IMG/VR virus record: IMGVR_UViG_3300021255_004328
From: a virus
Taxonomy: Duplodnaviria > Heunggongvirae > Uroviricota > Caudoviricetes
Length of the DNA stretch: 35,599 nucleotides
Direction: 5' to 3' (one strand)
Position numbers and translations under genes: made by a program. Numbering within the stretch: the stretch's first letter is position 1; each line of letters opens with the position of its first letter. The notes beneath the pieces are model-generated. The model saw nothing but the letters and a program-made list of their open reading frames with translations. It did no database searches and was not told the origin of the DNA. Positions 1,716 to 5,264 of the stretch are shown one piece after another.

Positions 1716-1750
1716 TAAAAAGATAGAGGGTTGACATAACATCAACCCTC
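1716..1750 (-). terminator. intrinsic terminator
   Basis: 9-bp stem GAGGGTTGA (1726-1734) / TCAACCCTC (1742-1750); minus strand continues TATCTTTTTA. Confidence 0.65.
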
Positions 1751-2128
1751 GGGGATTAGCGCACCGCGCTCTGTTCCTCCACCACTTGCTTTTTAGGAAA
1801 GCAAGAAAACCGAGGGTGTCCCGATTTCTCGAAACAACTTATCCACCACCAATTTTTGAGAAAAATTGGAAAACAACAGTCAAGGAGTAACCATCAACTC
1901 TTAACTGTAGTGGGAGGTGTAATCACCCAACCCCACCGCCAGCAGTTTTCTGTCAAAACTGCAAACTCTCAAAGGGATCCTGAACCTTTAAGAAGTTTCA
2001 CTTTCACTTTCAGTTGTCCGAACTCAACTAAAGCAGGGAGGGAAACCGAAAGCAATCCCTATGGGGATAATCTCCACCACCAAGTTTCATTGATGTTTTC
2101 AGAAGGAAGCTTCAAAAAACTTGGAAAC
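1751..2128. ncRNA. unidentified structured RNA region with four NCCA-hairpin-AAAC modules
   Basis: Dense perfect hairpins (1785-1805, 1849-1869, 1942-1962, arms 2080-2087/2117-2124), each preceded by TCCACCA or CCGCCA and followed by AAA(A)C; no credible CDS; strand not resolved. Confidence 0.6.
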
Positions 2129-2140
2129 AAATACCTTAAG

Positions 2141-2521
2141 TGGAGCTAAGGGGAATCGAACCCCTGTCCTATGTAACTGACCGCTAACACTTCTTTACAG
2201 GCTTAAACTCCATTATTTTAGGCTTAAGGAACGGAGCAAAAACTATAGTTTGGTTGTTGATACAATCTCAGAAGCCACCAATAAACCGCTTCTTTTGAAG
2301 GCTGCTCTTTTGTGATACAACTCCATTTGGAAAGCAATAGCCGTCTGGGTTGCAACTAAGGGAGTTTATCCCCTTAGGTTAGGCAGCGATTCTTGCGAAT
2401 ACGCTGTTGCTCTTGCGAGCGAAAACTGAACGTTTTGTTGCAGTTATTTTTTTCCGTATTAAGGTCGGCACCTTTACCTGATGTTAGAAACCACTTTACA
2501 AGTCGAAACCTGTGTAGCCCC
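2141..2521 (-). ncRNA. ssrA: tmRNA (transfer-messenger RNA)
   Basis: 5' GGGGCTACACAGGTTTCGAC; 3' GGACAGGGGTTCGATTCCCCTTAGCTCCA; acceptor stem GGGGCTA/TAGCTCC with G3.U70 and A73; pk1-like AAGGT-GCCG-ACCTT...CGG; ATAACT-GCA resume site; CCA not encoded (CTT follows). Confidence 0.95.
2379..2441 (-). other. tmRNA tag reading frame ATKRSVFARKSNSVFARIAA*
   Basis: GCA resume codon after ATAACT, 20 codons ending GCT GCC TAA, followed by hairpin CTAAGGG...CCCTTAG. Confidence 0.85.
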
Positions 2522-3878: not shown

Positions 3879-4566
3879 ACGGCAAATGAACTTTTACACA
3901 ATCACCTTCGATTGTCATATTATGTTCAATGTCTTTATATTTATAACCGTAATCTTTTGGAACTGTGCGACAAAAGTTTTTACGGAATTCTTCTGTGTCT
4001 TCAATTGGGTGCTCGAAAACAATTGTTATGTCTTCATCACCGTTAGGTAAACAATCAATCATTTTATTGTCATTAAAACGATTGTATATTCTTTCCCAGT
4101 TTTTGTAAAGATTGTGCATAAACTTGCTAACGTCTTGTTCTGTTCTGTCTGTTGCTTGTCTGTAATCGGCGTGCATCATTTCATTCTGACCGTGCCAACT
4201 GATTGCAACAACTTTTCCGTATGGGAAGATTTCACACTTAAGATATATGTACTTTTTCCTATCTTTTACTGGGACACAAACAGAGAACAAATACAATTCG
4301 CCGCCTTCTTTGTTTCTGTTAGGTAAAACACATATTAAATTTTTTGGCTCAAGAAACATATCAATAATCTTACAAGAAGTCTCTTTTGTCAAATGTTCAT
4401 TATGCATAAAGTCACGATTTTTATCTCTGTCTGCAATTTCAAACCTATGAGCTTTGATAGCTTGTTTGATTTTTGCAACAGCAGATGCGGCCTCTTCAGG
4501 AGTATGATGTCTTATTGCATTTGCTTTTGTTTCAAGCAGTATTTCAAGAAAAACTTTATCGTTCAT
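3865..4566 (-). CDS. MqsR-like (RelE-superfamily) RNase domain fused to an unknown C-terminal domain
   Basis: RDKNRDF...LT...II..FL...ELYLFS...IYLK...VVAISWH matches the MqsR-like pattern RxKN...ExWxF...IYIK...CISFH. Confidence 0.55.
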   Translation of the reverse strand: MNDKVFLEILLETKANAIRHHTPEEAASAVAKIKQAIKAHRFEIADRDKNRDFMHNEHLTKETSCKIIDMFLEPKNLICVLPNRNKEGGELYLFSVCVPVKDRKKYIYLKCEIFPYGKVVAISWHGQNEMMHADYRQATDRTEQDVSKFMHNLYKNWERIYNRFNDNKMIDCLPNGDEDITIVFEHPIEDTEEFRKNFCRTVPKDYGYKYKDIEHNMTIEGDCVKVHLPFGKF

Positions 4567-4574
4567 AGCCTTTA

Positions 4575-4595
4575 AACTAAATTATATATTTAGTT
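4575..4595. promoter_or_regulatory. palindromic divergent ACTAAAT motif pair
   Basis: AACTAAAT-TATAT-ATTTAGTT between divergent genes starting at 4566 (-) and 4607 (+). Confidence 0.55.
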
Positions 4596-4606
4596 GGAGG
4601 TTATAT

Positions 4607-5089
4607 ATGAAGACAGAAGCGGAGTACTGTTCTGTTATAATTCATTCACTTAATGAAGCAGGCATAGGGTATAAGATCCCAGACCCGTCTGGTCAATTTG
4701 CTGCAACAATCAAAAGATGCTTTGATATTATCGGAAGAATTGGTGAGTGTCCTGTTTACTTGGAAGCAAAGTTTAATAAAAAGATGGCGGCTTGTTCAAT
4801 GAAAAAAGTTGAAGAGCATCAGGCTTCTTATCTTGATGAGTTTGCAAAAATTCCAAATGCAATGTGTTTCCTTGCTTGGGGTATTCAGGTTGCAAGAGGT
4901 GATTGCCGTTCATATATTTTCGATTGGCGAGCAGTGTCGGAGTTATATAAAAAAGGGTATTCATTTCATATCAAAGAATTAGAAAAGTTACCTTATAATG
5001 AAATACATAAAAGCACATTTCAGTTTGTTAATATCATTACAAAAGAAGATATTATAAAAGCTTGTGGAGATATTTATGATAAAAGCTAA
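4607..5089 (+). CDS. recU: RecU-like Holliday junction resolvase (PD-(D/E)XK)
   Basis: KIPD...FDIIG...VYLEAK...EEHQxxYL follows the RecU motif order; GGAGG SD. Confidence 0.7.
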   Translation: MKTEAEYCSVIIHSLNEAGIGYKIPDPSGQFAATIKRCFDIIGRIGECPVYLEAKFNKKMAACSMKKVEEHQASYLDEFAKIPNAMCFLAWGIQVARGDCRSYIFDWRAVSELYKKGYSFHIKELEKLPYNEIHKSTFQFVNIITKEDIIKACGDIYDKS

Positions 5090-5264
5090 ATATGTTTGTC
5101 CTGAATGTAAAAAAGAAGTGATTGTAAAATTTAAGGCAGGAGAAACTCCTGCCTGTCCAAAATGCTGTAATAAAGATATGATTCGCCAATATGGCACAGT
5201 TAAGCTAGGCGATACAGTTGATGAACAAATGATTCACCTAGCCCAATCAATGTTGTACTCTTAA
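5076..5264 (+). CDS. FmdB-like zinc-ribbon protein
   Basis: YVCPEC...CPKC...MIRQYG; start moved to ATG 5076. Confidence 0.7.
   Translation: MIKAKYVCPECKKEVIVKFKAGETPACPKCCNKDMIRQYGTVKLGDTVDEQMIHLAQSMLYS

Follow-up and report, generated by a model that had tools for sequence, protein, structure and literature searches.

The 35,599-nucleotide viral sequence analyzed here in its entirety (the window; IMG/VR virus record IMGVR_UViG_3300021255_004328, Caudoviricetes) encodes on its minus strand, from position 2139 to about position 1717, a non-coding RNA of approximately 420 nt. This RNA is an array of four related structural units located between the 3' end of a phage transfer-messenger RNA (tmRNA) and a minus-strand intrinsic terminator, and it is almost certainly a divergent, expanded member of the wcaG RNA family (RF01761), read on the minus strand. 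The wcaG family is already known, as an orphan ‘riboswitch candidate’ since 2010 and from marine samples and cyanophages only. Weinberg et al. (2010) rated the motif a probable riboswitch, and their supplement noted its duplicated UGGYG element and suggested a dimeric protein site (PMC2864571). No functional study of wcaG was found in the searchable literature. The new elements of the present locus are its habitat and phage lineage, the combination of four units with an invariant central domain, the evidence that the RNA accumulates, and the association of the unit with tmRNA and tRNA genes. The balance of evidence tips, by a modest degree, toward an account in which this wcaG-type minus-strand RNA is a tmRNA trailer that acts as a stable recognition RNA in tRNA/tmRNA biology.

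On the minus strand, the units share a common design. A GUUU(U)C flank leads into hairpin P1, the 5' arm of which is rich in U and the 3' arm in A; a UGGY(G) linker then connects P1 to P2, a G+C helix that GG(A)G:CCCC closes. In the direction of transcription, unit D (2063..2128) begins with GUUU (2128-2125) and continues with a long P1 containing an inserted arm (2124-2080), UGGUGGAG (2079-2072), AUUAU and CCCC (2066-2063). It is followed by a central domain of 96 nt (1967..2062), for which alignments and folding indicate two long hairpins. Unit C (1910..1966) comprises GUUU (1966-1963), P1 (1962-1942), UGGCGG (1941-1936) and a P2 (1936-1910) in which GUGGG/CCCAC closes the hairpin GGGUG-AUUA-CACCU. 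After a variable spacer hairpin (1876..1908), where ACAGU...ACUGU closes AAGAGU/ACUCCUU, unit B (1814..1874) consists of GUUUU (1874-1870), P1 (1869-1849), UGGUGGAU (1848-1841), the P2 hairpin UGUUUCGA-GAAA-UCGGGACA (1836-1817) and CCC (1816-1814). Unit A (1751..1810) contains GUUUU (1810-1806), P1 (1805-1785), a second UGGUGGAG (1784-1777), the inner hairpin AGCGC-GGU-GCGCU (1770-1758) and CCCC (1754-1751), with a possible outer helix between CCUC (1815-1812) and GAGG (1779-1776). The terminator (1716..1750) is formed by the hairpin GAGGGUUGA-UGUUAUG-UCAACCCUC (1726-1750) and the tail UAUCUUUUUA (1716-1725). An earlier note, made from the letters of the window alone, had placed the four modules, including all four P1 hairpins, at the correct coordinates, and its minus-strand terminator at 1716-1750 was confirmed by a terminator scan. 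The NCCA words of the plus strand (CTCCACCA at 1777-1784 and 2072-2079, ATCCACCA at 1841-1848 and CACCGCCA at 1934-1941) are the reverse complement of minus-strand UGGN.

A chance origin of the four modules is excluded. The word TGGYGG occurs 29 times in the window versus 13.7 ± 3.5 times in shuffled sequences, and the pattern GTTT-N16-46-TGGYGG occurs 12 times versus 2.7 ± 1.8, with 7 of the 12 overlapping matches lying in the array stretch.

Assignment to wcaG rests on two models. In a permissive Rfam scan, RF01761 matched 1770-1877 on the minus strand, corresponding to units B and A, with 41.5 bits (E 4.8e-6 in a 1.2-kb search) against a gathering cut-off of 42 bits; the whole-window Rfam scan at the gathering threshold does not list wcaG. 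The nearest record, G001, also scores 41.5 bits (E 1.8e-7 per record), and a genuine cyanophage wcaG reaches 92.7 bits on the same model. In alignment, the RF01761 consensus is itself two copies of UUUC-hairpin-GUGGYG, and these UUUC/UGGYG-flanked hairpins (P1 and P3 of wcaG) are present in the array units. The second model, R1, is a single-unit covariance model built from 112 distinct marine units taken from the true wcaG RNAs of seven cyanophage isolates and from 88 IMG/VR loci, with the present phage excluded. Run on the window with filters off, R1 recovered unit A with 43.8 bits (E 8e-11), unit B with 35.4 bits (E 3e-8) and unit C with 20.0 bits (E 1e-3) on the minus strand; the next-best match in the window scores 11.3 bits. 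Unit D is detected in relatives, with 28.6 bits in G001 and 31.8 bits in L136, where its P1 is 28 nt long, and R1 found no further unit in the 188 kb of G001. The Rfam scans of the window gave no GOLLD, ROOL, T-box or Csr/Rsm match; a tmRNA_permuted match (19.4 bits, E 0.15) and others with E >0.5 were dismissed as not credible. The suggestion of the earlier note that the RNA could be undescribed is thus superseded by the near-threshold wcaG match, a match to a known Rfam family being one of the grounds for rejection that the note itself had set; the UGGYG hallmark had already been reported (PMC2864571).

Comparison with the marine units defines how far the array departs from the typical family member. 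Marine arrays hold two to four units, and across the 112 units from distant phages UUU and UGG are invariant, the base after UGG is only U or C, and P1 covaries, six of its seven pairs changing on both sides. The closest marine type to the window units is a first unit ending in UGGUGGAG, followed by GUCA...UGACCCC; it has a four-U flank, and in its GGAG:CCCC closing helix the A is either left unpaired or placed in A-C apposition. The middle hairpin of wcaG (its P2, GGGnn...nnCCC) and the linker UGGUGCGGAU / CCUGGUUUC are missing in the window, where Infernal skips them with a 29-nt local end; in place of this hairpin stand UGGUGGAU and a GNRA hairpin. In 70 of the 112 marine units, versus 24.5 ± 4.1 in shuffles, the 3 nt before UUUC pair with the hairpin loop. 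The pairing covaries in marine types 2 and 3; the flank:loop triplets observed are UGG:CCA, CUG:CAG, CAG:CUG, UAG:CUA, AGG:CCU and GAG:CUC, and this covariation points to an H-type pseudoknot with UUU as loop 1. The pairing is found in only 3 of 23 marine UGGUGGAG-type units, and within the window only unit A can make two of the three flank-loop pairs (GG:CC).

Both strands of the array fold better than shuffled sequences (z = -5.1 for the minus strand and -6.9 for the plus strand), so folding energy alone does not assign the strand. Other evidence identifies the functional strand as minus: the orientation of the family, the minus-strand terminator, a tmRNA in the same orientation, the G.U pairs, and the wcaG and R1 matches. 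In P2 of unit B, two U.G pairs would turn into C.A mismatches if the plus strand were read; R1 scores on that strand of the window are at most 8.4 bits, and unit copies elsewhere are co-oriented with the enclosing tmRNA in 26 of 26 cases and with the nearby tRNA in 15 of 15. This evidence bears directly on the first option of the earlier note, in which three or four plus-strand mini-helices mimic the tRNA-Ala acceptor (G1-C72, G2-C71, G3.U70, A73 and CCA) and serve as decoys for alanyl-tRNA synthetase (AlaRS). The plus-strand closing helices of units A, B and D do read GGGG/CUCC or GGGU/AUCC followed by ACCA, with a G.U pair at the place of the A-C apposition or bulged A of the minus strand, and the plus strand also folds well. 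However, the ‘G3.U70’ pair is the other-strand view of the A-C apposition in GGAG:CCCC, a feature with its A also kept in marine units of known strand. No plus-strand promoter or terminator was detected at the array ends by terminator and promoter scans, the plus-strand promoter-like matches at ~1542-1569 and ~2536-2565 being no more numerous than in shuffles, and the genes beside the array lie, like the tmRNA, without exception on the minus strand. The UGGYG strand is the one on which the family is defined, and it is certain in the tmRNA and tRNA-array copies; a further variant, A1987G in the central domain, would likewise become a C.A mismatch. The decoy explanation is therefore rejected as highly improbable.

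Conservation supports a structured minus-strand RNA. Relatives gathered through a neighboring gene and a scan of species genomes fall into three lineages: G001 with near-identical contigs; L136, with a neighboring protein 59% identical; and L302, a 306-kb contig with another tmRNA tag. Outside two indel blocks, the array is ~97% identical between lineages, compared with 74-86% for the flanks and 77% for the aligned part of the tmRNA; with its loops and linkers included, it is thus better conserved than the tmRNA. The central domain is invariant in all three lineages except at one position, has no Rfam match and belongs to no known family. The A1987G variant changes an A-U to a G.U pair and is thus paired on the minus strand only. 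Compensatory changes occur in P2 of unit B (U1834-A1819 to C-G in an RNA contig from run X19) and of unit C (GGGUG/CACCU to GAGUG/CACUC in G001 and the X19 contig). The unit B loop changes from GAAA to GCAA in L136 with its GNRA form kept, and the closing pairs of the spacer hairpin change from ACAGU/ACUGU to UCGG/CCGA in L136 with the structure kept, this hairpin being missing in L302. The terminator is conserved in L136 and L302, with changes in its loop only. Indels in the array between lineages are not multiples of 3, on which ground a plus-strand open reading frame at 1856-2149 (97 amino acids) was rejected as a gene.

The same changes weigh on the possibility that the stretch is a DNA-level repeat (Chi-like GCTGGTGG-type sites, iterons or a recombination hotspot) and not an RNA. 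Its TGGTGG-rich words are reminiscent of Chi, and a homing endonuclease has inserted beside the array twice. Yet the compensatory base-pair changes preserve hairpins, RNA libraries devoid of the flanking DNA contain the stretch in abundance, and the unit belongs to transcribed tmRNA genes, which together leave this explanation scarcely credible.

The phage derives from ruminant and other animal gut metagenomes, and the array is present as an abundant RNA in rumen samples. RNA contigs from four rumen/gut metatranscriptome studies cover 1743-2156, 1750-2090, 1776-2037 and 1777-1993, and k-mer depth is 5-21 over the array versus 17-82 over the tmRNA (21.5 versus 31.3 in run X19). RNA contigs of the tmRNA span 2140-2512, their boundary coinciding precisely with the mature 3' end. 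In three of four runs the depth over the flanking protein genes is zero; run X8 yielded contigs of low depth at 1032-1235 and 2531-2933. Array contigs end at 1743-1750, 25-35 nt short of the predicted 3' end, a position not used as evidence. These data also bear on an unlikely alternative in which the array is a passive 3' trailer, a stable hairpin stack without any recognition role, which would only shield the precursor of the tmRNA against 3' exonucleases or keep processing sites apart. Its location between the tmRNA 3' end and the terminator fits such a role, marine arrays are 3'-terminal too, and unit D and parts of unit C can be lost. A passive stack agrees poorly with the near-complete conservation of loops and linkers above that of the tmRNA, with UUU and UGG being invariant across distant phages, and with an abundance about equal to that of the tmRNA in run X19. 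Moreover, the array is kept in G001 although a homing-endonuclease gene separates it from the tmRNA.

One line of contextual evidence is the occurrence of the same unit inside tmRNA genes. The pattern GTTTTC-N4-5-TTT-N3-9-AAA-N4-GTGGTGGA was scanned against one GTDB genome per prokaryotic species and against IMG/VR. The species genomes gave 48 matches, at least nine of them inside tmRNA genes, downstream of the tag reading frame: six in Selenomonas and Mitsuokella (five distinct genomes) and one each in a Herbinix, an Ignavibacteriaceae and a Methylococcaceae metagenome-assembled genome (MAG). On whole genomes, R1 gave a single match, inside the tmRNA. In the Selenomonas/Mitsuokella clade, the unit-bearing tmRNA is chromosomal and the only tmRNA of the genome, and scores 86-101 bits on RF00023 versus 145-193 bits in other sampled Selenomonadaceae. 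Among a low-scoring subset of tmRNAs (G002, G003, G018, G036 and G042; loci L305, L321, L339 and L340), the unit follows pseudoknot PK2 in four of five; the low-scoring tmRNA of G036 has no R1 match. A survey of Selenomonadaceae with R1, with 150 first-look candidates scored per genome, found matches in at least 5 of 41 genomes. IMG/VR yielded 109 matches, 98 with a stem of at least 6 bp. Phage tmRNA genes, which encode at least 13 different tags between them, enclose 26 of the units, and 15 are located no more than 500 nt from tRNA genes; every one of these units shares the strand of its tmRNA or tRNA. In phage tRNA arrays (L386, L433 and L457) units fill tRNA-sized spacers, as in L386, where one occupies the 71 nt between tRNA-Pro and tRNA-His. 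In many tmRNAs of phages and some of bacteria, the unit belongs naturally to the domain that lies 3' of the tag reading frame.

A side observation concerns L306 (364-830 and 3185-3587), a 7.4-kb contig of a Flavobacterium MAG, in which a GOLLD RNA (289 bits) is followed after 20 nt by a wcaG-type unit and then a terminator; the tmRNA of this contig lies 2.4 kb beyond.

In the window, the tmRNA (2141..2521, minus strand; identified by ARAGORN and by Rfam RF00023 with 88.3 bits) carries the tag ATKRSVFARKSNSVFARIAA and ends in ...GCUCCA, its CCA being only partly encoded. It is complete by itself, and the array has neither a tRNA-like domain nor a tag reading frame. At the slot where other tmRNAs hold a full unit, this tmRNA has the hairpin GAAGC-GGUUUAUUGGUG-GCUUC (2262-2290, minus strand), the loop of which contains the unit flanks GUUU and UGGUG (GGUUUAUUGGUGG) without P1.

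The marine loci provide a second line of contextual evidence. Most marine arrays start directly behind a stop codon and have a terminator hairpin downstream, which makes them 3'-terminal elements rather than 5' leaders; in 61 of 77 loci a U-run occurs no more than 110 nt downstream. In loci L173-L290 (e.g. L173, L176 and L182) the terminator loop contains a -35 box (TTGCAT/TTGACA) and TATAAT follows the U-run; this promoter-in-terminator cassette argues against a simple 5'-leader role. In five of the seven cyanophage isolates examined, wcaG lies 19-105 nt upstream of tRNA-Gly or tRNA-Met. Pairing of marine types 2 and 3 with neighboring tRNA 3' ends, tried by eye, failed: tRNA-Gly (CCGC-U-CCA) against UGG-U-GCGG sets two U residues in opposition at the discriminator, and tRNA-Met is no match either.

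This context makes it rather improbable that the array is a cis-acting riboswitch or attenuator, in which a ligand or factor would select either the 1816-1810:1752-1746 helix or the terminator and so control read-through into the genes from 1702 to 214. Such a mechanism would agree with the published rating of wcaG as a probable riboswitch (PMC2864571) and with the terminator that usually follows marine wcaG arrays. Within the window, folding shows that CCCUCGG (1816-1810) is an alternative partner for CCGAGGG (1752-1746), which overlaps the 5' arm of the terminator, and a co-directional gene begins 14 nt past the terminator tail. The competing helix is invariant. Against the attenuator, terminators of the marine loci vary although the units are constant, which leaves no apparent conserved antiterminator; marine loci follow a stop codon, and the downstream gene is served by a promoter of its own within the terminator hairpin; and units inside tmRNA genes or between tRNA genes have nothing to attenuate. 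In addition, three of four runs show no RNA depth past the terminator, and X8 has just the low-depth contig 1032-1235 there.

The favored account of a tmRNA-linked recognition RNA would proceed as follows. The array would be transcribed as the 3' trailer of the tmRNA primary transcript, released on processing of the tmRNA 3' end, and persist as a stable RNA acting with tRNA/tmRNA biology and not as a metabolite riboswitch. Its units would offer repeated copies of one recognition surface, formed by two invariant elements, UUU and the UGGY linker that separates P1 from P2. Assignment to the functional class of stable RNAs tied to tRNA/tmRNA biology is tentative, falling a little short of an even call. 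The candidate partner is either a protein, following the idea of Weinberg et al. for UGGYG, or the single-stranded RCCA 3' end of a tRNA or tmRNA.

The T-box antiterminator UGGN bulge and RNase P L15 recognize the NCCA ends of tRNAs. By analogy with the T-box contact, an RCCA end is a possible partner of the array, albeit a doubtful one. UGGU and UGGC complement ACCA and GCCA, and UGGUGGA(G) complements the universal (C)UCCACCA end of tmRNA and tRNA-Ala; because this end is invariant, covariation cannot test the NCCA pairing. When the pairing is followed past the universally conserved 7 nt, UGGUGGAG agrees with CUCCACCA both in the window and in L302. Unit position 8 stays G where the tmRNA has G69 (L136, L319 and L293), so that it does not track tmRNA position 69 and no covariation results. 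The earlier note is upheld in part: its second option is right in its outline of the RNA, which is read from the minus strand in line with the tmRNA, runs to the terminator and carries UGGUGGA repeats. It fails in treating the RNA as undescribed, since the RNA belongs to wcaG (RF01761), and the pairing that it proposed with ...UCCACCA ends is possible in principle.

Several observations weigh against the favored account. The Rfam score of the array is 0.5 bit below the gathering cut-off for wcaG, and the window units have neither the marker sequences of marine types 2 and 3 nor the pseudoknot between 5' flank and loop, for which reason the array is filed as a divergent and not a typical wcaG member. 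Unit D is lost in L302, with a GIY-YIG gene in its place, and P2 of unit C is deleted in both L136 and L302. The RNA contigs are unstranded and give neither exact ends nor proof of a single transcript; no RNA contig spans the tmRNA 3' end by 31 nt, a result not used as evidence. The scan patterns demand conserved flanks, which biases the context counts to this sub-type. Only ~18% of the 88 marine wcaG loci adjoin a tRNA, most following the stop codon of a protein gene, which makes the association with tRNA a partial one; nor are the loci phylogenetically independent. Finally, no covariation identifies a partner for the array.

A blastn search against isolate phages gave no match, the DnaB-like helicase of the phage has only distant relatives (20-28% identity), and the neighboring proteins have no informative Pfam or PHROG family. 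In G001 (188.7 kb), the tmRNA beside the array is the only tRNA-like gene, and neither a tRNA gene nor SmpB was found. Loose pattern scans of viral contigs returned mostly Gly-rich coding repeats, and only this phage lineage proved real. In the sister lineages, a GIY-YIG homing-endonuclease gene lies exactly at the tmRNA 3' end, corresponding to an insertion point at 2140 in the window, which itself has none: in G001 it occupies L001:1992-2612, between the tmRNA and unit D, and in L302 it occupies 4500-5220 and replaces unit D. L302 (JAZNWZ010000130.1, 306 kb; tmRNA tag ATKRSVFARKSGALVRAAA) is binned as Candidatus Fimenecus sp. and is probably a near-complete genome of the jumbo-phage lineage within a bacterial MAG, through a binning artifact or as a hint to the host.

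The locus extends the wcaG family to a ruminant-gut jumbo-phage lineage and shows that a member accumulates in vivo. It also reveals the unit as a recurring part of tmRNA genes and phage tRNA arrays that usually stands at the 3' end of transcription units and not in 5' leaders. These contexts move the most plausible field of function from metabolite sensing toward tRNA/tmRNA or translation biology. A broader proposal, again by analogy, is that wcaG-type units may be a widespread phage module that captures single-stranded RCCA ends through a T-box-like contact outside T-box leaders; this is decidedly speculative and improbable on present evidence. If true, units in tmRNAs, tRNA arrays and multi-unit arrays would sense, shield or sequester uncharged acceptor ends, for example shielding them from host toxins that attack the CCA end. 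Suitable constructs for testing are a single unit, a unit embedded in the Selenomonas tmRNA, and the four-unit array.

Among known systems, GOLLD and ROOL (RF02032) resemble the array as phage-borne structured RNAs beside tRNA genes, but the window RNA is much smaller and modular and has no sequence or model match to them. With T-box antiterminators and RNase P L15 the array shares an invariant UGG plus Y (partners of A73 and G73) between two helices, near tRNA/tmRNA genes. Here, however, UGGY joins two separate hairpins instead of forming a bulge, there is no specifier or anticodon-reading part, and no covariation with any discriminator base was found, so that the resemblance is one of mechanism and not of membership. 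In the PK2-PK4 region of tmRNA (RF00023) from many phages and a Selenomonas/Mitsuokella clade, the identical unit GUUUUC-P1-GUGGUGGA-P2-CCCC follows the tag reading frame and has the orientation of the tmRNA; in L319, Infernal places it at the third helix after the reading frame. In such tmRNAs a single unit is internal, whereas here four lie outside a complete tmRNA. PK2-PK4 is largely dispensable for tagging in Escherichia coli, and a PK2-PK4 role therefore leaves the unit unexplained. The closest correspondence is with wcaG itself, which shares the UUUC flank, a C-G-closed hairpin whose 5' arm is U-rich and whose 3' arm is A-rich, UGGYG, a G+C helix, the tandem arrangement of units, a phage-borne setting and a terminator after the array. 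Unlike typical wcaG RNAs, the window units are without the UGGUGCGGAUGGG and UGGCGWGC markers and the flank-loop pseudoknot. Whereas the Rfam model describes two units from marine cyanophages, the window array combines four units with a 96-nt central domain and stands behind a tmRNA in a rumen jumbo-phage lineage.

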